64,000 bases of DNA from Patescibacteria group bacterium (GTDB lineage Bacteria > Patescibacteriota > Patescibacteriia > JBDRGY01): the NCBI GenBank assembly GCA_043817315.1, contig JBDRGY010000016.1:4863-68862 (forward strand), given 5' to 3'. Within the stretch, counting starts at the first letter, position 1. Every line of letters starts with the position of its first letter. Position numbers and translations under genes: made by a program. This document shows, piece by piece, positions 20,260 to 64,000 of the stretch. Below the pieces are notes generated by a model, which ran no database searches, had not been told where the DNA came from, and saw only the letters and a program-made list of their open reading frames with translations.

Positions 20260-20538
20260 TTATTTCTTAATAATCTTTATTGCCTTTCCTTCTATTACGG
20301 CTTGACTGACCTTTTTATGGGCTGAGCTAATAATTCGTTGAAAAGTGCTTTGAGAGGTATTCATCATCTTGGCCGCCTTTATCTGGTCATAGTCTTTGAC
20401 ATCCTTTAATCTTAAGGATTCTACTTCTTCCGGTGTTAATTCGATTGAACGCAAAGAACGCAACGGCACCCCCTGTGGTTTAAAATAATGGGCCCGGGCT
20501 CTAAACCTTATTCGTCTGCACCTTCTTGGTCTGGGCAT
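20260..20538 (-). CDS. DUF134/UPF0251 family putative DNA-binding protein
   Basis: MPRPRRCRRIRF...F.P.G N-terminal signature and sigma-70 region-4-like HTH. Preceded by an extended -10 TGTTATAAT on the coding strand. Confidence 0.8.
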   Translation of the reverse strand: MPRPRRCRRIRFRARAHYFKPQGVPLRSLRSIELTPEEVESLRLKDVKDYDQIKAAKMMNTSQSTFQRIISSAHKKVSQAVIEGKAIKIIKK

Positions 20539-20633
20539 ATCTATTAGTTATTATAACAATTTTGACATTTAAATAAAGTTAACTAGAATATAAATGCGGG
20601 GAGCCCCCTGGAATTTATCCCAGAGGGCTCTAT

Positions 20634-20891
20634 TTACTTGGCTGAAGATAGGTCCTTTTTTACTTTAGTAATTTCAGCCAAATCTTCCTTTAACATCTTT
20701 TCTTCCTGGTTTAAGGCATCTAGCTCATCTGCCTTAGTCCAATTCATCCGATAACCACCTTGCCTGGAAAACCCGCGACCCAAACCTCTGCCACAACCTC
20801 TTGAGCCATAACCGGCTCCACAAGGACCCATTCCTCGTCCTGCTCCGGGACCACCGCCCCAGACCGGACCTTGTCCATCATATCCTGACAT
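20634..20891 (-). CDS. DUF5320-like small protein: Gly/Arg-rich N-terminus with two Cys, C-terminal coiled coil
   Basis: MSGYDGQGPVWGGGPGAGRGMGPCGAGYGSRGCGRGLGRG...coiled-coil tail. ATG at 20891 with RBS GGGAGG 8 nt upstream. The track's GTG at 20900 is probably not the start. Confidence 0.6.
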   Translation of the reverse strand: MSGYDGQGPVWGGGPGAGRGMGPCGAGYGSRGCGRGLGRGFSRQGGYRMNWTKADELDALNQEEKMLKEDLAEITKVKKDLSSAK

Positions 20892-20914
20892 CGTTCTCAC
20901 CTCCCTTCATAGTT

Positions 20915-27233: not shown

Positions 27234-27382
27234 TACTACCTCCCGTCCGAGTGGGACATAATATCAGTGACCTATTTGCCAAAGAACGTTATATCTTCTT
27301 ATCAAAACCTCCTTTATTTGTCAATAAAAAATGACCCTGTCAAAAACAGTGACAGGGTCTTGTCGCAAGACAGTTCTTCCCC

Positions 27383-27715
27383 CTATTCAGAAGGAGGTTC
27401 TACCAGGTCAAGCCCACAGATGTGACCACACAGCTCATGGGAAAAACCTGGGACTGGAACACTCTGCCGGCCGGGAATCACCACGAAGGTGCGTTCCTCT
27501 TGGCTGGAACCGAAACCATGCTGGGCTGAATGAGCGATTCTGTCTCGAGTTGTCTGATCGGCGGTGAAACCACCACCCTCTATCCAACCGTGCAACTTCC
27601 TGGCCTGGAAAGCGCCGGCATCCTGAGAAAAGGTAACAGCGATCCCTCTGTCATTCCTCATGGCCTCTCTGAGGGTTTGCTGCACCTCAACTCGGCCAAA
27701 GAACCTCTGGGGCAT
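27383..27715 (-). CDS. Small hypothetical protein with HExxH zinc-metallopeptidase-like motif
   Basis: 110 aa. FSHELCGHICGLD near the C-terminus. GC-rich. Confidence 0.3.
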   Translation of the reverse strand: MPQRFFGRVEVQQTLREAMRNDRGIAVTFSQDAGAFQARKLHGWIEGGGFTADQTTRDRIAHSAQHGFGSSQEERTFVVIPGRQSVPVPGFSHELCGHICGLDLVEPPSE

Positions 27716-27826
27716 AGACTACCTCCTTTTGGAGAAGAACTGTGACTTCAAGGAACAGATAGTAAAAAAATGATAACAAGGATATGGCCGACTGTCAATA
27801 ATATATAACCAAGTTATTCTACTCTG

Positions 27827-27899
27827 CTCCCCCGGGTGGTCTCGAACCACCACTCTTCGCATTAACAGTGCGATGTTTTACCAATTAAACTACAGGGGA
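27827..27899 (-). tRNA. tRNA-Asn (anticodon GUU), copy 1 (AT-rich, host-like)
   Basis: tcccctg-ta-gttt-aattggta-aaac...tcgca-ctGTTaa-tgcga...ggtgg-ttcgaga-ccacc-cggggga-g. Layout matches bacterial tRNA-Asn. Confidence 0.8.
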
Positions 27900-29373: not shown

Positions 29374-29477
29374 AGCATGATTATTCTAACAAAAAATGAC
29401 CGGCTTGGCGATTGACAGTTCAGCAAAATAAAAAAGCCCGCCTCGAGATAAATCTCTTGGCGGGCACTTAAGGAATC

Positions 29478-31253
29478 CTAGTTACTGGCCTGTTTCAGCT
29501 TGGTAACCCGGGCTGGCTTTTCTGTCAGCAGGCGCATTCGCTCCTGGACAGCGTCGTGGTGATTCAAGGGTTGATTCTCCTTGAAGACAGCAGCCACGGC
29601 CTCAATCAGGTTGTCGTCATGCACCCCAGTGGGCTGGCCACCAGCAGCCTTGTCTCGCTTGATAGCTAGACGGGCTGCCCGGTCGACAATCCCCTTGATC
29701 ATGGCGCCACTAACCAGATGACCTAAGGTGAAAGTCTCTGTCCGTTTTCCCTTGCTGTCATCATCTGGCAGCATCTCGATCCGGTAAAGACCATACTCCT
29801 CAGCAAATAGCCGATTGACTGCGATCTCCACCAGGCGATCAACGGTCAGGCCTTCGGCCAAGGGCAACTGCCCCAAGTAGAGTCGGAAGATAGCAGCAGC
29901 GGCTTCCCGATCGGGCCTGCCTACGTAGAGCTTGAGATCACAACGGCCGTCGCGAGTAACAGCGGGATCCAGGACATCAGGCCGATTGGTAGCCACCAAC
30001 ACTATGGCGCTACTCTCCTTCATGCCTGACATCTCAGCCAAGAACATGGGCACAATAGTATCGCGCACATCTGAGCTGACTCCCTCACCCCGCTTGGGCA
30101 GAATAGCCTCGGCTTCGTCGATGAATATCACTACAGGCAGGCCGTACCTTTTCTTGTAGTACTCGGCTCGCAGGAACAGACGGCGAATCCGGCCTTCAGC
30201 AGTTCCAACCCACTTCTCCAGGATCTCCGGACCCTTGACGTAAATGAAGCCAACCGGAATACTCCTGTCTTTGGCCAGACGAACGATCTCCGTGGCCAAA
30301 GCCTTGCCCAACATGGTCTTGCCACAACCCGGGGGACCGATTAGGGCAGCTCCGACGATCGGCTTCTGACCGTAGTGAGCATAGAGCTCTGGTTCGTCCA
30401 AGTGGCCGACTACCGCTTCCCGCAACGTCTCTTTGATCTCGTCCAGGCCAGCAATGTCTTCCCAAGTGACGTCAGTTTCATCGGTTAGAGTCAGGAAGGA
30501 TTCTTCCTCCCCCAAGCAGTCAACAATCACTGTAGCTGAGGAATCAATAATCACCCGGAAACCAACTTCGATTTCACCGGTAAACTGGCCGGCCAGGATC
30601 ATTCTGCGGGCACCATGAAAATCGATCTCACAACGGTCATCATCAACCACTCGCTGAACTGTGACGATTTCTCCGTAGTCTTCTAGACCAACAACGCCTA
30701 GGATCTGAGAAGTGCTGCGGCTCAGTTTGACCGTATCTCCGGGCTTGATCTCCAGGTCTTTCGGATATTCAACCTCCAGACGCTGGCTACTGATAGCCAC
30801 TACAACCTTTCGCTGGTTGATGGCAATCAGTTCGATCTCGCGATCTGGGTTTGTCATTTCAGCTATACCTACGCCGAAATACTCAGACGAACCATCGGCA
30901 AAGCCAACAAGGACTTCGCCATTGTCGTCAACATCTCCGAAAACATAGCCAGGCTGACCGACCAGCTGCTCATTGTGGCAGCTGGCAGTGATACGGACCA
31001 GAGTACCATAAGGCAGGTCGGTATAGTCAACTTCTACCTCAGATTCAGTCGGTTCCAGAATAGCAATAGCTACTCCGTAAGCTACTGGCTGAGAAAACAG
31101 CTGCAATACCCGACGAGCCATCTCCTGAACCTTGACTCTGGCTCTCATTCGGCCTCGTCGGCTACTGTGTCTGCCGGTCAGGATTTCTTCCTCTTCTGGA
31201 CCGGGAAAGGCGTCCATAAAATCTCTAATCGGATCATTAGAATTACCCACCAC
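29478..31253 (-). CDS. AAA+ ATPase with N-terminal tandem OB/beta-barrel-like domains (ARC/PAN/Mpa-like architecture), GC-rich
   Basis: Walker A GPPGCGKT. Walker B VIFIDEAEA. Second region of homology and sensor residues. About 280-aa non-ATPase N-terminus. GTG start with GGAGG RBS. Confidence 0.8.
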   Translation of the reverse strand: MVGNSNDPIRDFMDAFPGPEEEEILTGRHSSRRGRMRARVKVQEMARRVLQLFSQPVAYGVAIAILEPTESEVEVDYTDLPYGTLVRITASCHNEQLVGQPGYVFGDVDDNGEVLVGFADGSSEYFGVGIAEMTNPDREIELIAINQRKVVVAISSQRLEVEYPKDLEIKPGDTVKLSRSTSQILGVVGLEDYGEIVTVQRVVDDDRCEIDFHGARRMILAGQFTGEIEVGFRVIIDSSATVIVDCLGEEESFLTLTDETDVTWEDIAGLDEIKETLREAVVGHLDEPELYAHYGQKPIVGAALIGPPGCGKTMLGKALATEIVRLAKDRSIPVGFIYVKGPEILEKWVGTAEGRIRRLFLRAEYYKKRYGLPVVIFIDEAEAILPKRGEGVSSDVRDTIVPMFLAEMSGMKESSAIVLVATNRPDVLDPAVTRDGRCDLKLYVGRPDREAAAAIFRLYLGQLPLAEGLTVDRLVEIAVNRLFAEEYGLYRIEMLPDDDSKGKRTETFTLGHLVSGAMIKGIVDRAARLAIKRDKAAGGQPTGVHDDNLIEAVAAVFKENQPLNHHDAVQERMRLLTEKPARVTKLKQASN

Positions 31254-31409
31254 ATCCTCCTTGGCCTTAGGCCTGTTTATTTTCCATTCTCAAAGAACAA
31301 ATCGATTCCCCAAATTATCATAAACCAATGGTGCTGTCAAGCAGGGAGTGGGCAGGAAAAACTGAAGAAAATCTTGTTGGGTTACTAGAAACAATAGGTT
31401 AAATCGAGA

Positions 31410-31428
31410 TCAAGCCCTTAGGGCTTGA
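31410..31428. promoter_or_regulatory. Perfect 8-bp inverted repeat overlapping a TTGACA -35-like hexamer in the divergent promoter region
   Basis: TCAAGCCC-tta-GGGCTTGAca. A/T-rich -10 candidates lie 12-17 nt downstream. Confidence 0.3.
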
Positions 31429-31627
31429 CAAATCTAGATATTTATTATAAGGTAGACCATTCTATTTGGGACGAATTAGCTTCAAATAGAGGGTACTTTG
31501 ACATCTGAATAATCCAAGGAAAAAACGATAAAAACAGAAGAAAATCCCTTAGTTGGGAGGAAGGAGTTCTGATGGATTACTGCCCGTAAGCAACATTGGA
31601 AACACGCACCCGAAAGGAGAAACGAAA

Positions 31628-32281
31628 ATGGCTCCACGACGGAGTTTCAAGGATAGGTTCCTTGACATGGTCATCGAGCGAGAGGATCCGGTCACGCCGG
31701 CTGCTCCTCAGCCCAGACCTGGTTCTACTACATCCACCACACCCATGGTTGTTACACCTTCAAATCCATCAGTCAATCAGGAAATGTTGACAGCCCTGAT
31801 GGACGAGGTGCTCAGGCAGTCAGGATCTGACTACACCGCTTTTCACCAGATCTATGACTCGCTGGATGGAGTACCTGACGAAGCGACTCGCTATCGGGCC
31901 GCCTTCAAGAGTGCAAGTAAGATGGCAGGTCTGACCCGAGAACGCCTGTTGACTGCCCTGAGAAGACGCCCGGCCATCCTGGCCACTGAAATCCAGGAGA
32001 TCGAGGCTACTCTGGGACAGAAAGAGCAGGCCGAAGTCGGCAGTAAGCAATCCGAGATCCAGATGATCGACAGTCAGTTGGCTGAAGATCAGAGACGGAT
32101 CACTGAGATCCAGAGAGATATGACATCTCGCCAGACGCGCCGTACTCAGCTTATGGCCGAGAAGTCTGCGGGTGAAGCCAGCTTGGCTGCATCCAAGGCC
32201 AGAGTCGGGGCTACTGCTACTGCTGCTAAAGCCAAGATCGCAGATGAGTTGCGCAAGGTGGAAGCTTACATCACTACCTGA
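31628..32281 (+). CDS. Hypothetical coiled-coil protein with PspA-like N-terminal amphipathic helix and Pro/Thr-rich linker
   Basis: ATG at 31628 with AAGGAG RBS. N-terminus SFKDRFLDMVIEREDPV resembles the PspA/IM30 start motif (F..RF.D.V...EDP). C-terminal long helices. Confidence 0.5.
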   Translation: MAPRRSFKDRFLDMVIEREDPVTPAAPQPRPGSTTSTTPMVVTPSNPSVNQEMLTALMDEVLRQSGSDYTAFHQIYDSLDGVPDEATRYRAAFKSASKMAGLTRERLLTALRRRPAILATEIQEIEATLGQKEQAEVGSKQSEIQMIDSQLAEDQRRITEIQRDMTSRQTRRTQLMAEKSAGEASLAASKARVGATATAAKAKIADELRKVEAYITT

Positions 32282-32297
32282 AAGGGGGTAAAACCAG

Positions 32298-33359
32298 ATG
32301 GGACCTGATCTTACTAACCCGGGCGATCTTACCGCCAAGGTAAAATCGTTTTGGGAAAGACCAGAGGGTCGCCCTGGAGCTGTTATAGTGGCTCTACTTG
32401 CCGCTGCTGTCGGGGTAGGTTTTCTCAATTTCGTTCTACCTCATCTCCACCTCCTGTTCATGAACCTAACCCGCACTCTCATTTCCGGCACTACGCTGCT
32501 GGTTCTGGCCAAAATCATAACGGCCAAGCGAACCAGAGTTCTGTTCTGGAATATGCTCAAGAGTGTGTCTCGGCTGATCGCCAAGACCTACGCCGAGCTT
32601 GATCCCATTGGGATCATGAGAAACACTCTGGCAGATATGAGGGACCAGTACCGCAACCTGGATAAGCAGGCCGGTATTGTGCGTGGCGTGATGGAAACGC
32701 TGAATGAGTTGATGGAGAAAAGTGCCCGCCAGATGAAGGAATCTCTGGGTTTGCTCAAGCAGGCTCAGAAGCGCCAGATGACATCTCAGCTGGTGCTGCA
32801 AAGCCGTCGAGCGGGTCGCCGGAAGGACAACATTATTACCTTCCAGGAACTCCATCACAAGCTGGAACTGATTCTGCGAGTACTGATCAAGTACATGGAA
32901 GCAGCCAAAGTGCACATTGATGATCTTGAAGACGACATCATGGTGCAGGAACAGAAACGCAAAGGGATGCGGGCTGCTTCTTCAGCAATTCGTTCCGCCA
33001 GAAGCATCTTCGTTACCGATCAGCAGACCGAGCTTTTCAACCTGGCTACCGAAGCCTTGGCTGAAGACTACGGCCGTAAACTGGGAGAGATCAAGCATTT
33101 TGTGGAGATCTCCCAAGGCATGGTCGATGGTATCGATCTGAGAAACGGTAAGCTGGAAGAAGAGGCTCTGGAACTGCTGGAACAGTGGGAGAGCGATCCT
33201 AGCTCTTTCGCCATTCCCGGCATGGAAAAGCAGAGGCTGATTGCCGTGTCCAACGACCCCAATGAAGTCCTGGACATCGACAGTACTCAGCCCGACGTTC
33301 GCAGTATGCCAACAGCATCCGGAAGCAAAGATCAGAAGTGGGATGAGTTTCTGGAGTAG
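32298..33359 (+). CDS. Hypothetical membrane-anchored coiled-coil protein (PspA/IM30- or TelA-like, weak)
   Basis: One N-terminal TM helix then about 250 aa of heptad-like helical sequence beginning AELDPIGIMRNTLADMRDQYRNL (EDP..M...L.DM pattern). Confidence 0.45.
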   Translation: MGPDLTNPGDLTAKVKSFWERPEGRPGAVIVALLAAAVGVGFLNFVLPHLHLLFMNLTRTLISGTTLLVLAKIITAKRTRVLFWNMLKSVSRLIAKTYAELDPIGIMRNTLADMRDQYRNLDKQAGIVRGVMETLNELMEKSARQMKESLGLLKQAQKRQMTSQLVLQSRRAGRRKDNIITFQELHHKLELILRVLIKYMEAAKVHIDDLEDDIMVQEQKRKGMRAASSAIRSARSIFVTDQQTELFNLATEALAEDYGRKLGEIKHFVEISQGMVDGIDLRNGKLEEEALELLEQWESDPSSFAIPGMEKQRLIAVSNDPNEVLDIDSTQPDVRSMPTASGSKDQKWDEFLE

Positions 33360-33413
33360 TTCAGGTACCTGCAGCAAGACATTTGTTGGTTCTACTCAAA
33401 GGAGGGATCGGTT

Positions 33414-34961
33414 ATGCCTCGACTCACCAGAGGTGCTGGGAATTTCCTGTTGGTTATCGCCGTTCTGGCGATAGTCGCAGGTGGATACACGGCAGTTCAG
33501 AGAGGTTGGTTCGGCATCGGTACTAGCAACCAGGCAGCTCCAGCTGGTCCGGTCACGGTAGCTACCGGCGAGACCATTGACCCCATCAATGTCCACGTGG
33601 TCACTTGGTGGGGTTGCGCCGGCGGCGTTCTGGCCAATAACGGATTTTCTCCAAACGAAGACTGCGACTACTACCGTAAGCATAACATTCTGGTCAAGTT
33701 CAACCTGATAGATGTGTTGCCAAACTCATGGGATGCTTGGAAAACCGGAGAAATTGATATTCTCGCCTACACGGCAGAATCTCTGGCTCCGCTTCTCCCT
33801 ATCCTGTGGGACTATGACCCGGTGGTATTCTTCAGTGAAGACAGGTCTCAGGGTGGCGATGTCATTCTGGCCCGCGAAGGCATCAATTCAATGGTTGACC
33901 TTCGTGGCCGTCAGGTAGTTTACTGCCAGGATGCTCCTTCCCAGAGTGTGCTTCTGCATGCTCTGGACGCCGCCAACATGACTCTGGACGACATCATCCC
34001 CATTACGACCGATGATGTCATTCTGGCAGGCAACATGTTTGAAGCCGATCCGGAGATTGCGGCCGCCGCAGTCTGGAGTCCGGAAGATGCCAGAATCATG
34101 GCTGCTGATCCGCGTGTTCATGTCTTGTTCAGTACTAAGGACGCGGATCACATCATCTTCGATGTCATGCTGGTTAAGCGAGACTGGTACGAGGCCAATT
34201 TCGATGAGGTAGTGGCCTTCCTGGAAGGCTGGTTCGGAGGTGTAGCTAGGATCTACAACAACCCAGCCGACAAAAGAAAGGCACTGCAGCTAATGGCTGA
34301 CGGCACAGGCCTCGGCGTAGATTTCTTCAAGGATACGGCTGACGGTTTTCACCTCAATACCTACGGGGATAACGTCAATATCTTCAACCTCAATGGTAAC
34401 TACCAGGGTGTGACCGCCAAGGACGTCTACGAAGAAACCGCTGCACTGTACCAGAGAATTGATCGAGTTGGAAACGATCTTCCCCTCTGGCGCAGAATCT
34501 CTGACACCAAGGCACTCCGTGCTCTTAGTCACCTACGTGGACCTGGCTACGATGCGACAGAAGTATCTCGTTTCTCAAAAGCCGGTCCAGAGAAAAGAAC
34601 TGAGAGAGAGATCACCAGTAAGCCGGTAACTGTCAACTTCGGCTTCGATTCAAATGAGTTGGACGCCAACGCTCGAAACATCATCGATGCCGAATTTGGC
34701 GACCAGGCCCAGATGTTCGGCAACATGTACATCAGAATCGTCGGCAATACCGACAGTGTCGGTGACTACCAGTACAACGTCAGGTTGTCTGAGCAGAGAG
34801 CTCAGGCGGTAGCTGACTATCTGGCTGCCCGTTACCACATTGACCGGTACCGTTTCATTATCATCGGTAACGGACCCAACAACCCGGTGGCCAACAACAA
34901 CACCGATGCTGGCAAAACCAGGAATCGGCGTACTGATTTCGAACTGGTCCGGAGGGACTAG
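33414..34961 (+). CDS. Fusion protein: TM anchor + NMT1/SsuA-like ABC substrate-binding domain + C-terminal OmpA-like peptidoglycan-binding domain
   Basis: N-terminal hydrophobic helix. About 330-aa periplasmic-binding-protein-like region. C-terminal NTDSVGDYQYNVRLSEQRAQAVADYL...RRTDFELV OmpA_C signature. Confidence 0.7.
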   Translation: MPRLTRGAGNFLLVIAVLAIVAGGYTAVQRGWFGIGTSNQAAPAGPVTVATGETIDPINVHVVTWWGCAGGVLANNGFSPNEDCDYYRKHNILVKFNLIDVLPNSWDAWKTGEIDILAYTAESLAPLLPILWDYDPVVFFSEDRSQGGDVILAREGINSMVDLRGRQVVYCQDAPSQSVLLHALDAANMTLDDIIPITTDDVILAGNMFEADPEIAAAAVWSPEDARIMAADPRVHVLFSTKDADHIIFDVMLVKRDWYEANFDEVVAFLEGWFGGVARIYNNPADKRKALQLMADGTGLGVDFFKDTADGFHLNTYGDNVNIFNLNGNYQGVTAKDVYEETAALYQRIDRVGNDLPLWRRISDTKALRALSHLRGPGYDATEVSRFSKAGPEKRTEREITSKPVTVNFGFDSNELDANARNIIDAEFGDQAQMFGNMYIRIVGNTDSVGDYQYNVRLSEQRAQAVADYLAARYHIDRYRFIIIGNGPNNPVANNNTDAGKTRNRRTDFELVRRD

Positions 34962-35041
34962 GTAGGAAATGTTCATTGGGGCAGGCGTCTTCTATCGTCT
35001 GCCCCTGTTTTTTCCTTTCTAGCTAACCAAGAGGGGGAAAG

Positions 35042-35827
35042 ATGCAATTGTTCGAACTGCGCGGATCCCTCCCTAACCGGACTAGGCTGATTCTGCAACT
35101 GGGAGGAATGATCTTCTTTATTACCCTGTGGTGGGCTGTAGTTCAGTATTTTGAGATCAAACCCAGCCTGCTGCCCTCACCAGAAAAGGTGTTGCTGGCT
35201 TTCAAACCACTTTACTTCGAAAGCAACATCCTCTACCACTCCTCTATCTCTATCAAGCTCAATGTCTTGGGCTATCTGGAAGCTGTGGCCATTGCCATAC
35301 CGCTAGGATTTTTAATCGGTTTGTTCCCTTTCTTTCGGGGACTGCTGATGCGATATGTCATTGTCCTGCGCTACTTGCCCCTGACAGCACTCTTGGGCTT
35401 GATGATTCTCTGGTTCGGGATTGGGATCAATATGAAGGTCCAGTTCCTGGCTCTGGGTATCCTGGTCTATCTACTACCGGTAGTAGTCCAGCGAATAGAC
35501 GAGGTCAAAAAGATCTACGTCTACACCGCCCAGACTCTAGGCGCCAGTAAATGGCAGATCATCAAAGCTGTCTTTATCCCCGATGTCATTTCTAGGGTAT
35601 TTGACGACATCCGGGTGCTGGTAGCCATCTCCTGGACTTACATCATCATCACCGAGGTTATAAACCGTAACCAGGGTGGTGTCGGGGCTGTCATCTACGG
35701 AGCCCAGCGTCGCGGTAAGTTGGATGAGGCTTTTGCTGGCCTAATAGTCATCATCCTGATCGGCTTTCTGCAAGATCGGTTGATGGTATTCTTTGACCGT
35801 CGGTTCTTCCGGCACAAATACGTCTAG
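35042..35827 (+). CDS. ABC transporter permease (NitT/TauT/SsuC family)
   Basis: 6 TM. Binding-protein-dependent transport inner-membrane component pattern. Confidence 0.8.
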   Translation: MQLFELRGSLPNRTRLILQLGGMIFFITLWWAVVQYFEIKPSLLPSPEKVLLAFKPLYFESNILYHSSISIKLNVLGYLEAVAIAIPLGFLIGLFPFFRGLLMRYVIVLRYLPLTALLGLMILWFGIGINMKVQFLALGILVYLLPVVVQRIDEVKKIYVYTAQTLGASKWQIIKAVFIPDVISRVFDDIRVLVAISWTYIIITEVINRNQGGVGAVIYGAQRRGKLDEAFAGLIVIILIGFLQDRLMVFFDRRFFRHKYV

Positions 35828-35836
35828 GGGGTGGGC

Positions 35837-36652
35837 ATGGCAGACTCAAATACGACCCGTGTCGCCTTTCCCAACACCGAGCTGCCGGATGTTATCGATC
35901 TACGTAAAATCGGGATGATCTATGACGGACGGGTGGAGGTTCTAAAAGACTTCGACCTACTAATCGAGGATAAACCCGGACAAGGTCAGTTCGTGGTCAT
36001 CCTCGGCATGTCAGGTTGTGGCAAATCCACCGTTTTGCGGATCATCGCCGGTATACAGGAACCGACAGCCGGTGAGGTGTTCATCTATGGACATCCCAGA
36101 AAGGAAGTTGAACCAACTAGTATGGTGTTCCAAAGCTTTCCCTGCTATCCCTGGGCCACCGTACTAGAAAATGTCCGCCTAGGTCTGGACTTTAAGGGAA
36201 TTCCCCGGTATGAAGGCAATGAAAAGGCCCAGGAAATGATCGAGATGGTCGGACTAGGAGGGCACGAGCGTAAGCTGCCTGCCGAACTGTCCGGTGGACA
36301 GCAACAGCGAGTGGCAATTGCCAGGAGCTTAGTCTTCAACCCCAAGCTGCTGCTGATGGATGAGCCGTTTGGCGCCCTAGATACCTACACTAGGGGGAAA
36401 ATGCAGCAGCAATTAGAAGAGCTGTGGGAAAGGCTACAATGCACAGTCATCTTTGTCACCCATGACATCCAGGAAGCGGTTTTCTTGGGAGATGACATCT
36501 ACGTGATGGAAAGGCACCCCGGCTTTATCTGTCACCACTTCCCGGTTCCGCTGGGTTTCCATCGGGATCGGTCCACCAAGCATGGTGCTGAGTTTGTTAA
36601 GTTGGTCAATGATGTCGATGACTTCATTCACGACATGGCAGCTCACGACTAG
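35837..36652 (+). CDS. ABC transporter ATP-binding protein (NitT/TauT/SsuB family)
   Basis: [36 protein letters not shown]. Alternative GTG start at 35831. Confidence 0.88.
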
Positions 36653-36677
36653 TATCTCAAGGAGGAATCGTTCTTTC

Positions 36678-36714
36678 GGCAGGAGAGTCAACTGACGCTC
36701 CTGCCGATTTTTTT
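36678..36714 (+). terminator. Rho-independent terminator of the GC-rich ABC operon
   Basis: ggcaggag-agtcaactgacg-ctcctgcc followed by gattttttt. Confidence 0.6.
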
Positions 36715-36740
36715 ATATTAAAAAACCGCCCTAATGGCGA
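36707..36740 (-). terminator. Rho-independent terminator for the minus-strand tRNA-Asn cluster
   Basis: On the minus strand: atcgccattagggcgg followed by ttttttaatataaaaaaa. Confidence 0.5.
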
Positions 36741-36802
36741 TTTAATATTTGGCTCCGCCCTGCACCATTTGGTGCAAGACTCCGCTGGGCAAGTAAAATA
36801 TG

Positions 36803-36875
36803 TGGCTCCGCGAGACGCCTGCCTGCCGGCAGGCAGGGACTCGAACCAGCGACCCACTGGTTAACCCCGCATGTC
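36803..36875 (-). pseudogene. Degenerate tRNA-Asn-like copy with encoded CCA and an inserted perfect palindrome. Not foldable as a tRNA
   Basis: Minus strand: ...gggGTTAACCAGTGGGTCGcTGGTTCGAGTCC-ctgcctgccggcaggcagg-cgtcTCGCGGAGCCA. It retains the anticodon-loop-to-T-arm string and acceptor 3' strand of copy 2 but lacks a matching 5' acceptor. Confidence 0.45.
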
Positions 36876-36949
36876 CTCCTCGACTCCGCTCGGAGTCCTG
36901 CGGGACAGACAGCCAGGGAATTAATATCTTTTTACCCAAGAGCGCATTG

Positions 36950-37022
36950 CTCCGCGAGTCGGACTCGAACCGACGACCCACTGGTTAACAGCCAGTTGCT
37001 CTACCAACTGAGCTATCGCGGA
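36950..37022 (-). tRNA. tRNA-Asn (anticodon GUU), copy 2 (GC-rich, sequence distinct from copy 1)
   Basis: tccgcga-ta-gctc-agttggtag-agc...actgg-ctGTTaa-ccagt...gtcgg-ttcgagt-ccgac-tcgcgga-g. Confidence 0.8.
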
Positions 37023-37250
37023 GCAATGCGCTCTTCTATATAGTATAAAACAGTTGCGGCATTTACCCCGCCGTATGGCGGGGCCAACTGAGCTATCCAG
37101 GAAGACAAAATTCACTTATCTAATTAGTATGAGAGACCCATCCCGCCAACGGCGGGATTGCTCTACTTCTATATGGGAACTGCCAGCCAGAGGCTGGTCC
37201 GCCTCTGGCGGAAGCTATCGCGGAGCTTTGGGCACAATAACGATATTATA
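37023..37250. repeat. Cluster of tRNA-Asn 5'-fragments (D-arm and acceptor pieces) and GC hairpins between tRNA-Asn copy 2 and rpoD
   Basis: ccaactgagctatcc (37084-37098) and gaagctatcgcggagc (37216-37231) repeat parts of tRNA-Asn copy 2. Hairpins ccccgccgtatggcgggg, cccgccaacggcggg and ccagccagaggctgg are present. Confidence 0.4.
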
Positions 37251-48777: not shown

Positions 48778-48779
48778 AG

Positions 48780-48866
48780 CGGAGAGGGAGGGATTTGAAC
48801 CCTCGAGACCCTTGCGAGCCTACTTGCTTTCCAAGCAAGCGCACTAGACCACTATGCGACCTCTCC
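48780..48866 (-). tRNA. tRNA-Ser (anticodon GGA), type II
   Basis: ggagagg-tc-gca-tagtggtctag-tgc-g-cttgc-ttGGAaa-gcaag-long variable arm-gaggg-ttcaaat-ccctc-cctctcc-g. Confidence 0.8.
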
Positions 48867-48894
48867 GCTCTGTTGCCAAATTATTAATAAACAC

Positions 48895-48922
48895 GCATTA
48901 GACCACTATGCGACCTTTCCGC
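48895..48922 (-). repeat. Partial duplicate of the tRNA-Ser 5' region (acceptor 5' strand + D-arm) about 30 nt upstream of the tRNA
   Basis: gcattagaccactatgcgacctttccgc versus gcactagaccactatgcgacctctccgc (26/28 nt). Confidence 0.4.
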
Positions 48923-49048
48923 GATGTTATTATAGCATAATAAATACAGGCCAAAAGTCAAAGGTTTGACAAAATTTATCACTGAAACTAAAATAAGGGC
49001 AGCTCAATCACCAGGAAAAAACTGCAGTTGGCCATAGGGGAGGTAATC

Positions 49049-49297
49049 ATGTTGGTTTTTCTCAAAGCAGACGCGACCTGGGAAGATCGCAAAGGCCTCA
49101 GGCAGCAGTTGACCAGATGTACCGTTAGCGGTGAAGTGGTTCCTCTGCGTGACGGTCGTTTCGGCTATGCCCTGGAGCATATGCGTCGTGGGCCCACTCC
49201 GGAAGAACTGGACTTCCTAGAGGGACTTCCCCAGGTTGACCACGTTGAACTAGGACAATGGCCTGATCCCAGGCCCCAGACAGTCAGGAGGACCTAA
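49049..49297 (+). CDS. GC-rich small protein, possible stand-alone ACT/RAM-like domain (paralog of the next gene)
   Basis: 82 aa. GGGGAGG RBS 5 nt upstream. Pattern ML..AD...QLT..VS...F...L...P.V..V shared with 49297..49527. Confidence 0.35.
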   Translation: MLVFLKADATWEDRKGLRQQLTRCTVSGEVVPLRDGRFGYALEHMRRGPTPEELDFLEGLPQVDHVELGQWPDPRPQTVRRT

Positions 49298-49527
49298 TGC
49301 TGATTCAAACGGTGACCGGAGCTGATACGGCCCTGGTTGAGCAGTCAGTCAGGCAACTGACCCAACACGGTGCCGTCAGCTGTTGCGGCAGCAATGTCAA
49401 GATCGACCTGGGTGATTCTGCCTTTTCGGCCAGTTTCCTCAGAGACCTGGAGTCGATCCCCGGAGTCACCTGTGTCCAGGTGGAAGAGGGCGAAGACGCC
49501 AACTACTGCCGCATGGGTGACGACTAG
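49297..49527 (+). CDS. GC-rich small protein, possible stand-alone ACT/RAM-like domain
   Basis: 76 aa. AGGAGG RBS. TAATG stop-start overlap with the previous gene. ...FLRDLESIPGVTCVQV resembles the AsnC-type RAM C-terminus. Confidence 0.35.
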   Translation: MLIQTVTGADTALVEQSVRQLTQHGAVSCCGSNVKIDLGDSAFSASFLRDLESIPGVTCVQVEEGEDANYCRMGDD

Positions 49528-49585
49528 ATCTTTCGAGCTTGGGGAGAGCGAGTTTACTCTCCCCCATTTTATTCCTCACAAATTT

Positions 49586-50641
49586 ATGATAACCCGAGTC
49601 AAAACCAAAGTAATCAAAATCGGTCAACAAGCAATCGGAGGCAACCATCCGGTTCTAGTTCAATCCATGTGCAATACAGACACCAGAAATGTTGCCAGCA
49701 CTGTCAAGCAAATCCGGGAATTACAACAAGCGGGGTGTGAAATTGTCCGAGTAGCTGTTTTGAACCTGGCTACGGCTCAGAAACTGGGTCAGATTAAGCA
49801 GAAGATCCAGATTCCCTTGGTAGCTGATATTCATTTTGATTATAAATTGGCTTTGGAGGCTATCAAGCAAGGTGTTGATAAGATCCGAATCAATCCTGGT
49901 AATATCGGATCTGCTGATAAGATAAAAATGGTGGTTGAGGCTGCTAAAAAGAACCATGTTCCTATCCGCATTGGCGTTAACTCTGGCTCAGTCGAAAAGC
50001 GAATTCTCCAGAAGTATAAAAATAAAGCCACCCCTCAAGCCATGGTGGAGTCAGCTCTGTATCACGTCAAGCTTTTAGAGAAATTTAACTTCAAAGATAT
50101 CGTTATTTCCCTGAAAGCCTCTGATGTCAATCGCACTATTGCCGCTTACCAATTAATTTCTAAGAAAGTTAATTATCCTCTGCACCTTGGTATAACCGAA
50201 GCCGGCACTAAATGGATGGGCACCATTAAATCAGCTATTGGTATCGGCGCTTTGCTTAATCAGGGGATTGGCGATACTATCCGGGTTTCTTTAACAGCTA
50301 ATCCTGTGGAGGAAGTTAAAGTAGCCTGGGAAATCCTCAAAGATTTGGGGCTAAGAAAACGGGGCCGCATGTTGATTTCTTGCCCCACTTGTGGCCGCAC
50401 CCAGATTAACCTAATCCCTTTGGCTCAGAAAGTGGAAGAGGCTACGGCTAATATAGAAAAGCCGATTACGGTTGCTGTGATGGGTTGTATTGTCAACGGA
50501 CCAGGCGAAGCCAGAGAGGCTGATCTGGGAATTGCCGGTGGTAAAGATGTGGGTGTTCTCTTTAAAAAAGGAAAAGTGCTAAGAACAGTCAAAGAAAAAG
50601 ATTTACTAAAAGAATTATTGAAAGAGATTAAGAAAATATAA
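49586..50641 (+). CDS. ispG: 4-hydroxy-3-methylbut-2-enyl diphosphate synthase (IspG/GcpE)
   Basis: RINPGNIG motif. TIM-barrel and C-terminal 4Fe-4S Cys (CPTCGRT, MGCIVNGPGE). ATG at 49586. The track ORF start at 49370 is an upstream in-frame extension. Confidence 0.9.
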   Translation: MITRVKTKVIKIGQQAIGGNHPVLVQSMCNTDTRNVASTVKQIRELQQAGCEIVRVAVLNLATAQKLGQIKQKIQIPLVADIHFDYKLALEAIKQGVDKIRINPGNIGSADKIKMVVEAAKKNHVPIRIGVNSGSVEKRILQKYKNKATPQAMVESALYHVKLLEKFNFKDIVISLKASDVNRTIAAYQLISKKVNYPLHLGITEAGTKWMGTIKSAIGIGALLNQGIGDTIRVSLTANPVEEVKVAWEILKDLGLRKRGRMLISCPTCGRTQINLIPLAQKVEEATANIEKPITVAVMGCIVNGPGEAREADLGIAGGKDVGVLFKKGKVLRTVKEKDLLKELLKEIKKI

Positions 50642-50657
50642 TTTCAAGATAAAAAAT

Positions 50658-50686
50658 GAGGGCGGTAATATATCGCCCTCTTTGTT
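50658..50686 (+). terminator. Rho-independent terminator after ispG
   Basis: gagggcg-gtaatatat-cgccctc followed by tttgtt. Confidence 0.6.
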
Positions 50687-50693
50687 ATGCCCC

Positions 50694-50963
50694 TTACCAG
50701 TTAGTACTTGAGGCGCTCTCGAATGTCTCCACCAGAGTTTCCCCTGACCCGGCCATTATCTCCACGGTACGAGGACCAGTGGAAACAGCTTGAATGATCG
50801 AATTGGGCGGATAATGCTGGGCCAGCATCTCCATAGAACCAACGGTAAACGTCTCGTTGCGATTCAGGATAGCTACGAAACCGTCCCGGCGCGCCTCTAC
50901 CCAGCAAGTTATTCCTTCGGGCAGATGGGGCTTGATCAAGGCCTGAATTTCCAGAGCTTCCAT
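50694..50963 (-). CDS. GC-rich small hypothetical protein (second of a coupled pair)
   Basis: 89 aa. ATG overlaps the upstream gene's stop by 1 nt. RBS present. Confidence 0.35.
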   Translation of the reverse strand: MEALEIQALIKPHLPEGITCWVEARRDGFVAILNRNETFTVGSMEMLAQHYPPNSIIQAVSTGPRTVEIMAGSGETLVETFESASSTNW

Positions 50964-51277
50964 TATTTCTTTCCTTTCCGGCCAAAGGCCTTCTCCACTC
51001 CCCTGACAATGACCGACAGGTTACGTGCCCTGATCTCGAAGCGGGCTCTGCCCACTGCCTTGACCCCAAACTGGTCCTTATGGCCGAAATGAGAGCGCAT
51101 CCGCTCTCTAAGATCATGGCTGTGACTAGGCACATTGATAACTATCCTGGTCAAATCAGGACCAGTTGCAGTTATTCTAGCTCTCTTGGTGAAAGGATCA
51201 GGCCAGCCAAACTCTGCGCCCAGGGCCGCTTCAATCCTACCGATGGCCTCACCCTTAGACAGCTGCTTTTTGGACAC
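50963..51277 (-). CDS. GC-rich small basic hypothetical protein (first of a coupled pair)
   Basis: 104 aa. GTG start with AAGGAGGG RBS. Near-consensus promoter TTGACA-N17-TATGAT upstream (51322..51350). Confidence 0.35.
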   Translation of the reverse strand: MSKKQLSKGEAIGRIEAALGAEFGWPDPFTKRARITATGPDLTRIVINVPSHSHDLRERMRSHFGHKDQFGVKAVGRARFEIRARNLSVIVRGVEKAFGRKGKK

Positions 51278-51321
51278 CGTACCCTCCTTGACTGATGTCC
51301 TCGGTTAATGAACAATTAAGT

Positions 51322-51350
51322 TATCATATTGTTTCTTATTTTCTTTGTCA
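51322..51350 (-). promoter_or_regulatory. Sigma-70 promoter for the small-gene pair
   Basis: Minus-strand TTGACA (51345-51350), 17-nt spacer, TATGAT (51322-51327). Confidence 0.55.
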
Positions 51351-51357
51351 AATAAAA

Positions 51358-51383
51358 CACCCCCCGCTCATAGCGGGGGGTGT
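51358..51383. terminator. Strong GC hairpin terminator downstream of ppsA (bidirectional)
   Basis: caccccccgc-tcat-agcggggggtg flanked by T-runs on both strands. Confidence 0.6.
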
Positions 51384-51395
51384 TTTCAGTAATGG

Positions 51396-63629: not shown

Positions 63630-63786
63630 AGCGGAATTAACTGAATAAAAAGAGTATGAGCATTATACACCCCCTGTCAAGATTTGGCAAGTCCTGCCCC
63701 CTGCGACACAGATAAGGGGCAAAAAAAATAAGGCCCCACCTCGTCAGTGCTTTCGCAAAGACGAGGGGGACCCGACCTGTGTTGGT

Positions 63787-64000
63787 CTAGTTGTTGTCAC
63801 CGCCCTGGGCAGCCTTGGTCTGCTGGTAGCGCAGAGTGCGGCAGCGCTTCAGGCCCCAGGTGTAGAGACGACAGCGCTCACCGTTACCGCGACCGGCCGT
63901 GCACTTGCCAGCTAGACAGTCCTCGCACTTGGACTCCTCGAAGTAGGTGGGATCCAGGCACTTGGCGACCGTATCGGCGATGCGCTCCAGAGGGATCTGG
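63787..64000 (-). CDS. 3' end of a GC-rich gene running off the window. Cys-rich C-terminus (possible zinc ribbon)
   Basis: Minus-strand frame open to the window edge: ...QIPLERIADTVAKCLDPTYFEESKCEDCLAGKCTAGRGNGERCRLYTWGLKRCRTLRYQQTKAAQGGDNN*. Stop at 63787-63789. GC far above the genome background. Confidence 0.35.
   Translation of the reverse strand, partial: QIPLERIADTVAKCLDPTYFEESKCEDCLAGKCTAGRGNGERCRLYTWGLKRCRTLRYQQTKAAQGGDNN

Follow-up and report, generated by a model that had tools for sequence, protein, structure and literature searches.

What are the four small, GC-rich genes that surround ispG in a member of the Patescibacteria? The question is raised by a 64-kb stretch of DNA from a Patescibacteria metagenome-assembled genome (MAG; contig JBDRGY010000016.1 of assembly GCA_043817315.1). 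This whole stretch is called the window here, and coordinates are 1-based on it. Within the window, ispG (GcpE; 49586-50641, plus strand; Pfam GcpE 4e-157) has a host-like composition and lacks a ribosome-binding site. It is bracketed by two pairs of short open reading frames (ORFs), named in this analysis as ORF1 and ORF2 (pair 1, upstream) and ORF3 and ORF4 (pair 2, downstream). NCBI annotates the window proteins as hypothetical proteins (ABIB97_05875-05895). A sequence-only reading had taken the four ORFs for real genes of foreign composition, in coupled pairs typical of toxin-antitoxin or regulatory cassettes.

The answer favoured here, which as a whole is given somewhat better than an even chance, is that they constitute two separate lineage-specific small-protein operons of a narrow, Parcubacteria-like clade of Patescibacteria, kept under moderate purifying selection. 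That they are real lineage-specific operons is held with high confidence. The specific mechanisms are put forward tentatively: ORF1 and ORF2 may be abundant leader proteins of ispG, and ORF3 may be a dimeric basic nucleic-acid binder, possibly autoregulatory, with an acidic modulator.

Two coupled gene pairs

All four ORFs are present where the sequence-only reading had placed them. The members of each pair are coupled by a TAATG overlap, and a hairpin ends each pair. ORF1 (49049-49297, plus strand; 82 aa, near-neutral) begins with an ATG preceded by the ribosome-binding site GGGGAGGT. Its start had been set at TTG 49028; ATG 49049 is likelier, with GGGGAGGT 5 nt upstream. ORF2 (49297-49527, plus strand; 76 aa) is acidic (pI 4.2) and follows by TAATG coupling with an AGGAGG site. 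On the minus strand, ORF3 (50963-51277; 104 aa) has a GTG start with AAGGAGGG upstream and is strongly basic (pI 11.4, net charge +13). It is coupled to ORF4 (50694-50963, minus strand; 89 aa), which is again acidic (pI 4.7).

The strong ribosome-binding sites were thus described correctly, as was the near-consensus TTGACA-N17-TATGAT promoter of pair 2 (51323-51351, minus strand; 11 of 12 positions match). A second promoter of the same quality, TTGACA-N17-TAAAAT (48966-48994, plus strand; 11/12), precedes pair 1.

Coding evidence and selection

The four ORFs are real protein-coding genes and not decayed fragments, as had been claimed. Under a codon model, the annotated frame of each outscores the other five. 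Their codon usage is closer to that of the GC-rich island genes of the window (see below) than to that of the AT-rich host genes, and GC at the first codon position exceeds that at the second in all four. Among homologous loci fetched from other contigs (L001, L084-L086 and L088-L091), tblastn yields E-values of 1e-14 to 1e-28 while the nucleotides have diverged, and every indel among the homologues keeps the frame. The ratio of non-synonymous to synonymous substitution rates (dN/dS) is 0.15-0.35 for the small genes (0.15-0.22 for ORF1), compared to 0.01-0.04 for pps and ispG, from which it follows that constraint on the small genes is real, if relaxed. Between these related genomes synonymous divergence has reached saturation; even in pps, dS exceeds 1.

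These comparisons bear directly on the alternative that the GC-rich stretches are non-coding, either a structured RNA or decayed fragments, and that the ORFs are accidental. Where an AT-rich genome has a GC-rich segment, this is often an RNA gene, and chance ORFs tend to be longer where GC is high. The sequence-only reading had itself named conservation of the nucleotide sequence alone as the outcome that would point this way. What is found in the relatives, however, is conservation of the proteins with saturated synonymous sites. Protein-level homologues exist despite nucleotide divergence, indels preserve the frame, dN/dS lies well below 1, and start codon and ribosome-binding site are conserved. 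Confident AlphaFold models were obtained for ORF3 and ORF2, and no Rfam family is matched within any ORF, either at the gathering threshold or at E<=1. A non-coding origin is therefore scarcely credible.

Variation at a finer scale can be observed as well. Three short metagenome contigs carry the window locus at ~99.6% identity. In one of them, L001, a tract corresponding to window 51131-51312 (182 nt; L001 3150-3340) is ~14% divergent, whereas the sequence elsewhere is 99.7% identical. This tract covers the 5' half of ORF3 and its 5' untranslated region. ORF3 nevertheless remains intact in frame and start position: ATG replaces GTG as the start codon without a shift in position, the ribosome-binding site is retained, and the codon changes comprise 8 synonymous and 8 non-synonymous ones. 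Most of the changes are transitions, they affect all bases, half are synonymous, and they extend into the 5' untranslated region. A diversity-generating retroelement was therefore rejected for this tract, which was probably imported by recombination from a diverged allele.

Homologues and conserved positions

With the four proteins concatenated as query, HMMER was run exhaustively against 1.84 billion representative proteins and returned only 10 matches. Three of these are the window's own ORF4 and ORF2 (100%) and a strain-variant ORF3 cluster (92%). Six are homologues in relatives, namely three of ORF3, two of ORF1 and one of ORF2; the library-search E-values of the homologues range from 1e-10 to 1e-17. 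The remaining match, P0010 (4205 aa, 16 stretches, 23% identity), was discounted as a repeat-protein artefact.

All true homologues occur in related Patescibacteria and at the same positions: ORF3 follows pps, and ORF1/ORF2 lie between tRNA-Ser and ispG. The three ORF3 homologues (P0004, P0005 and P0007) are 44-51% identical and lie immediately 3' of pps. In L084 and L085, the flanking pps and GroEL genes are 95.5% and 90% identical to those of the window at the amino-acid level, while the ORF3 homologue between them is only 49-51% identical. There it is followed by a coupled gene of 173 aa, and the same pair is found in L088. L089 has the ORF3 homologue alone between pps and the end of ispG. 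On the ispG side, L090 contains the promoter, an ORF1 homologue (41% identical), a positional homologue of ORF2, the hairpin and ispG, in this order. In L086, ORF1 is missing: the promoter is followed by an ORF2 homologue alone (P0009, 45-47% identical, directly 5' of ispG), the hairpin and ispG. L091 (GCA_018818805.1) has an ORF1 homologue (62% identical) at the same position without ORF2, followed by a different cassette of 98 aa in the opposite orientation. The contigs in which a partner is missing (L086, L089 and L091) are short, but each covers the whole intergenic interval.

For ORF4, no independent homologue was found in this HMMER search. Its full length aligns with the N-terminal half of the 173-aa protein of L084 and L088, but only weakly (BLASTP E 0.07). 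ORF4 would be an acidic, dispensable partner that in relatives is replaced by a two-domain version of 173 aa or is absent.

The 98-aa ORF of L091 deserves separate mention. It lies on the minus strand in the gap between the ORF1 homologue and ispG (L091 4100-4545), is basic (pI 11.2), and has a TTGACAAAAT-type promoter, a ribosome-binding site and a terminator. Its identification as an ORF3 homologue is not supported (hhalign E 0.33).

Scans anchored on ispG in genome and metagenome contigs list relatives that are all <=67% identical. Among the matches listed none carries the cassettes, and Parcubacteria at a greater distance (ispG 66-67% identical) show the usual ispD/E/F-uppS-dxs neighbourhood. 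Scans of viral contigs with all four family alignments gave no relatives.

The search for the pairs elsewhere, which the sequence-only reading had proposed, thus yields homologues at the same positions, with partners that are at times missing or replaced. This matters for the possibility that both pairs are type II toxin-antitoxin systems, for example with a basic toxin ORF3 neutralised by an acidic ORF4, and likewise for ORF1 and ORF2. The pairs resemble such systems in their short coupled genes, each pair with its own strong promoter, in the combination of a basic and an acidic product in pair 2, in the palindrome over the ORF3 promoter region, and in the variable downstream partner of ORF3. 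They differ from them in that no toxin or antitoxin family is matched in Pfam, NCBIfam, PADLOC, PHROGs or the PDB, the sole trace being VapB30 at E 0.99. The putative toxin ORF3 stands without a partner in L089, and ORF2 occurs without ORF1 (L086) as does ORF1 without ORF2 (L091). In addition, the pairs are clade-restricted and keep the same syntenic places throughout a clade in which dS is saturated, apparently by vertical descent, instead of being patchy or mobile, and none of the relatives is found on viral contigs. Because of the missing family match, the homologues of ORF1, ORF2 and ORF3 that lack the partner found in the window, and the syntenic loci, a toxin-antitoxin function is considered very unlikely.

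Base composition and ribosome-binding sites

That all four ORFs are more GC-rich than ispG is borne out. Their GC content is 0.53-0.58 and that at third codon positions (GC3) 0.55-0.70, compared to 0.427 (GC3 0.418) for ispG and 0.425 for pps. The cassettes of the relatives show the same excess (0.49-0.55 vs 0.40-0.44). The two classes of genes also differ in translation signals: with gene starts taken mechanically, a ribosome-binding site of at least 5 nt precedes 6 of the 10 GC-rich genes (island and ORF1-4), compared to 5 of ~50 AT-rich host genes. GroEL is among these five. Roughly half of the Parcubacteria have been reported to lack the anti-Shine-Dalgarno (anti-SD) motif (PMC9297842), and the scarcity of ribosome-binding sites in the AT-rich genes is consistent with the loss or rarity of anti-SD reported for some of them (PMC9297842).

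Such a composition invites the explanation that the cassettes were inserted recently from a foreign source, as cargo or relics of an integrative element beside a tRNA gene, and have no role in the host. Their GC content and codon usage match those of an 8-kb GC-rich island at 29.4-37.2 kb, and they carry the ribosome-binding sites that host genes lack. Pair 1 abuts a tRNA-Ser gene of which a 35-nt fragment is duplicated, and a third similar cassette abuts tRNA-Asn. However, the same genes, promoters and ribosome-binding sites are in place in relatives whose pps and ispG have reached saturated synonymous divergence. Furthermore, dN/dS lies below 0.4, viral relatives were not found, and none of the ORFs between 47 and 53.5 kb encodes an integrase. 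No repeat pair flanks either cassette, and the 35-nt tRNA-Ser fragment does not bracket one. Since composition, promoters and ribosome-binding sites have all been retained throughout a clade in which synonymous change is saturated, the pairs are not recent insertions; this alternative is unlikely. The term 'foreign composition' remains apt as a description, and not as a sign of recent arrival.

In the favoured explanation, the genes were probably acquired from a donor of higher GC content that used ribosome-binding sites, before the clade diversified, and have been kept since. The persistent GC content, ribosome-binding sites and promoters are compatible with an old acquisition under continuing constraint or with a special class of highly expressed genes.

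The tRNA gene in question, tRNA-Ser(GGA), lies at 48779-48866 on the minus strand (ARAGORN; Rfam tRNA 60 bits) and forms the left boundary of the pair-1 locus. The same tRNA-Ser sequence is found upstream of the homologous cassettes in L086, L090 and L091. A repeat search detected a partial direct repeat of its 5' part at 48894-48928 (35 nt, 89% identical), and a 17-mer from this repeat, TAGACCACTATGCGACC, has 2 copies in the window compared to 0.03 expected. The repeat may be a pseudo-tRNA or an old att remnant. It is located 54 nt upstream of the tRNA-Ser gene (window 48840-48928). L086 and L090 have tRNA-like fragments in the corresponding position, similar to it but rearranged.

Promoters and the ispG transcript

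The pattern TTGACAAA-N14-16-TANNAT occurs at exactly 2 sites in the 64 kb, which are the two pair promoters, compared to 0.05 expected. The -35, the -10 and the start region of pair 1 are conserved in L086, L090 and L091, and the promoter of pair 2 is conserved in L001, L084, L088 and L089. Across the relatives, both promoters and the CAAGGAGG ribosome-binding sites are conserved; the remaining leader sequence drifts.

Pair 1 would form the promoter-proximal part of the ispG transcription unit, in the order promoter, coupled ORF1-ORF2, weak hairpin and ispG. ORF2 and ispG are separated by 58 nt. A terminator scan places a hairpin with a short U-tract in this interval (49541-49564, plus strand), ~22 nt before the ispG ATG. 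The hairpin is kept in L090 and L086, where two pairs have changed on both sides (compensatory), and its U-tract is weak or absent. It is likely a leaky terminator or a stabiliser. A pattern scan predicted no plus-strand promoter between the pair-1 promoter and ispG, so ispG is probably transcribed from the pair-1 promoter by read-through. Given the order of these elements, the ORF1 and ORF2 proteins would be made in excess, and ispG by read-through.

Pair 2 would be an independent unit after the terminator of pps. This terminator, with a perfect 15-bp stem, was located by an inverted-repeat search and the sequence at 51354-51386 on the minus strand; in L001 the stem is kept and the loop is different. 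At the other end, a hairpin terminator at 50658-50680, detected in the plus-strand terminator scan and followed on the minus strand by TTTTTT, is common to the convergent ispG and ORF4. The -10 of the ORF3 promoter is closely followed by the inverted repeat TTAATTGTTCATTAA (51305-51319, minus strand). All five homologous upstream regions have such a repeat in this position, its arms measuring 5-9 nt, and it is regarded as a candidate operator. ORF3 could possibly bind this conserved palindrome on its own promoter and thereby regulate its own expression.

Predicted folds and charge

No family can be named for the window proteins, in line with the sequence-only reading: nothing is matched at E<0.01 in Pfam, NCBIfam, PHROG or PADLOC, and the homologues have no significant match either. 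Profile searches of the PDB with the window proteins and their homologues gave nothing below E 0.03. Foldseek searches on AlphaFold models, which had also been proposed, were run for ORF2 and ORF3 and returned generic folds, with no significant structural match.

The ORF3 model (5 sequences in the alignment) has a pLDDT of 83.6, a pTM of 0.77 and a two-layer a-bb-a-bb-a topology, in which two bb-a units form a four-stranded sheet packed by helices. The best Foldseek matches have E-values of 4.5e-3 to 3e-2, probabilities of 0.98-0.99 and TM-scores of 0.43-0.50; none reaches E<=0.001. The best superpositions are those with DCoH-like domains of the RNA polymerase subunit L/Rpb11 type, such as 7ok0_L (82 columns, root-mean-square deviation 2.5, TMq 0.47) and 9mu9_K (TMq 0.50), and a Marseillevirus Rpb3/11 domain aligns with E 4.5e-3. 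The a-bb-a-bb-a saddles of LAGLIDADG and MotA-CTD are topologically alike and superimpose less well. These folds dimerise, and some bind DNA via the sheet. Unlike the DCoH-like proteins, ORF3 is far more basic, the matches are non-significant with 7-20% identity, and ORF3 lacks the RNA polymerase context of subunit L. A LAGLIDADG homing endonuclease was tried for ORF3 and rejected, as the position of the catalytic acid varies (E/K/Q) across the homologues and TM-scores are 0.26-0.37. The ends of helix 1 in the ORF3 family read ALGAEFG, ALGNKFS, ALNNEFY and ALKRQFY.

The charge, on the other hand, is a family trait. All members of the ORF3 family have a pI of 10.4-11.4 and a net charge of +10 to +14; ORF4, the 173-aa partner and the ORF2 family are acidic. 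Comparison of ORF3 with ORF4 showed no similarity. Since the structural matches are all non-significant, it is charge and architecture that point to nucleic acid as a ligand: ORF3 most likely dimerises and would bind nucleic acid via the basic face of its sheet.

ORF2 was modelled with 2 sequences (pLDDT 74.6) as a ferredoxin-like b-a-b-b-a-b fold (E2-7 H11-21 E26-30 E33-37 H45-52 E57-64). It has a disordered C-terminal tail with a conserved aromatic-Cys that is invariant in all three homologues; the motif is NYCRMGDD in the window and L086 and HFCPWRT in L090. The best TM-scores (0.58-0.61) are those with the ACT domain of IlvN and the RAM domains of Lrp/AsnC (5ypp_E, 2cyy and 1ri7). The best Foldseek E-value is 0.024 and none is <=0.001. 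No Pfam match is found at E<=1 (PF01842, PF13291 and PF01037), and PDB profiles give E>=0.09. The ACT/RAM-like pattern that had been suggested is thus retained for ORF2 at the level of the fold, and no match with E<0.02 accompanies it. ORF2 resembles the IlvN regulatory subunit and the RAM domain of PH1519/FFRP in topology, in size and in a helix-'IPGV'-strand motif, and it is also encoded beside the gene of a metabolic enzyme. It differs in its additional disordered, Cys-bearing tail and its lack of a recognisable ligand site, and RRM, HMA, acylphosphatase and de novo ferredoxin folds match its model about as closely.

For ORF1, the b-a-b-b-a-b pattern was judged from its sequence only. ORF1 and ORF2 had been called paralogous; this could not be demonstrated, as BLASTP gives E=0.25 and hhalign aligns just 21 columns (probability 6.9%, E 0.005) over a C-terminal helix-strand motif. 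A common fold is plausible.

A closer connection to the neighbouring enzyme may be envisaged, in which ORF1 and ORF2 are accessory or regulatory subunits of IspG, either as ACT/RAM-like ligand sensors or as a Cys-tail carrier that serves this [4Fe-4S] enzyme. The probable transcription unit shared with ispG in the window, L086 and L090 points in this direction, as do the ferredoxin-like fold of ORF2 with its best TM-scores to regulatory ACT/RAM domains and the invariant aromatic-Cys in the flexible tail of all three ORF2 homologues. Yet distant Parcubacteria, among the matches listed, keep ispG in the ispD/E/F-uppS-dxs neighbourhood without such genes, either ORF can be absent (L086, L091), and the fold is generic. 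A function as IspG subunits is therefore doubtful.

Weighing the favoured explanation

Several observations weigh against the explanation of two old operons with an ispG leader and a nucleic-acid binder. An ancient horizontal origin is one reading only of the persistent GC excess, which selection on amino-acid composition or on expression level would fit as well. It is spacing, together with a pattern scan, that suggests the co-transcription of ispG, and the ispG of L091 is preceded by an upstream region of its own. The TTAATTGTTCATTAA palindrome, itself AT-rich, lies in a spacer that is AT-rich as well, and could represent no more than a start region that is conserved. The structural matches are all non-significant, both for ORF3 (Foldseek best E 4.5e-3 to 8e-3, TM <=0.5) and for ORF2 (E >=0.02), and the alignments behind the models hold just 5 and 2 sequences, respectively.

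Other GC-rich genes of the window

The 8-kb island (29400-37250; 50-54% GC compared to ~42% for the genome) contains genes for an AAA+ ATPase (29478-31253), two unknown proteins, a fusion of an NMT1-like binding protein with OmpA, an ABC permease and an ABC ATPase. It is situated between two tRNA-Asn(GTT) genes (27826-27899 and 36949-37022) with clearly different sequences, of which the second is GC-richer. Just downstream of the tRNA-Asn lies the third small cassette (27335-27800, minus strand). Its orphan ORF of 110 aa (27715-27383; GC 0.556) has no Pfam match and is equipped with a TTGACA-N17-TATCAT promoter, a AAAGGAGGT ribosome-binding site and its own terminator.

GC-rich sequence is also seen at two further places. 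The right edge of the window (63651-64000) has 62% GC and apparently contains the end of a minus-strand GC-rich gene that runs off the window. At 20260-20900, a small gene for a DUF134 protein (92 aa) neighbours one for a DUF5320 protein rich in Gly and Arg (88 aa), where GC peaks locally at 55%, and the two adjoin thioredoxin-like ORFs.

It is conceivable, if improbable, that ORF1-4, the 27383-27715 cassette and the 8-kb island represent a distinct class of long-kept genes, GC-rich and provided with ribosome-binding sites and consensus promoters among ordinary genes that are AT-rich and lack such sites, with a separate expression regime for acquired small proteins. ORF1 and ORF2 would then be included as IspG-specific accessory factors with a Cys-tail.

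Implications

Nothing in this locus overturns current understanding: it is ordinary 'hypothetical protein' territory with a mildly curious dichotomy of ribosome-binding sites and GC content. If the favoured explanation is correct, three to four very small clade-restricted families (<=~10 clusters among 1.84 billion representatives) would be added to the pool of uncharacterised Patescibacteria proteins. Two of these families would gain a modelled fold and a testable role, as leader proteins of the ispG transcript and as a basic, autoregulated nucleic-acid binder, respectively. The contrast between host genes without and GC-rich genes with ribosome-binding sites bears on translation initiation in the Parcubacteria (PMC9297842).

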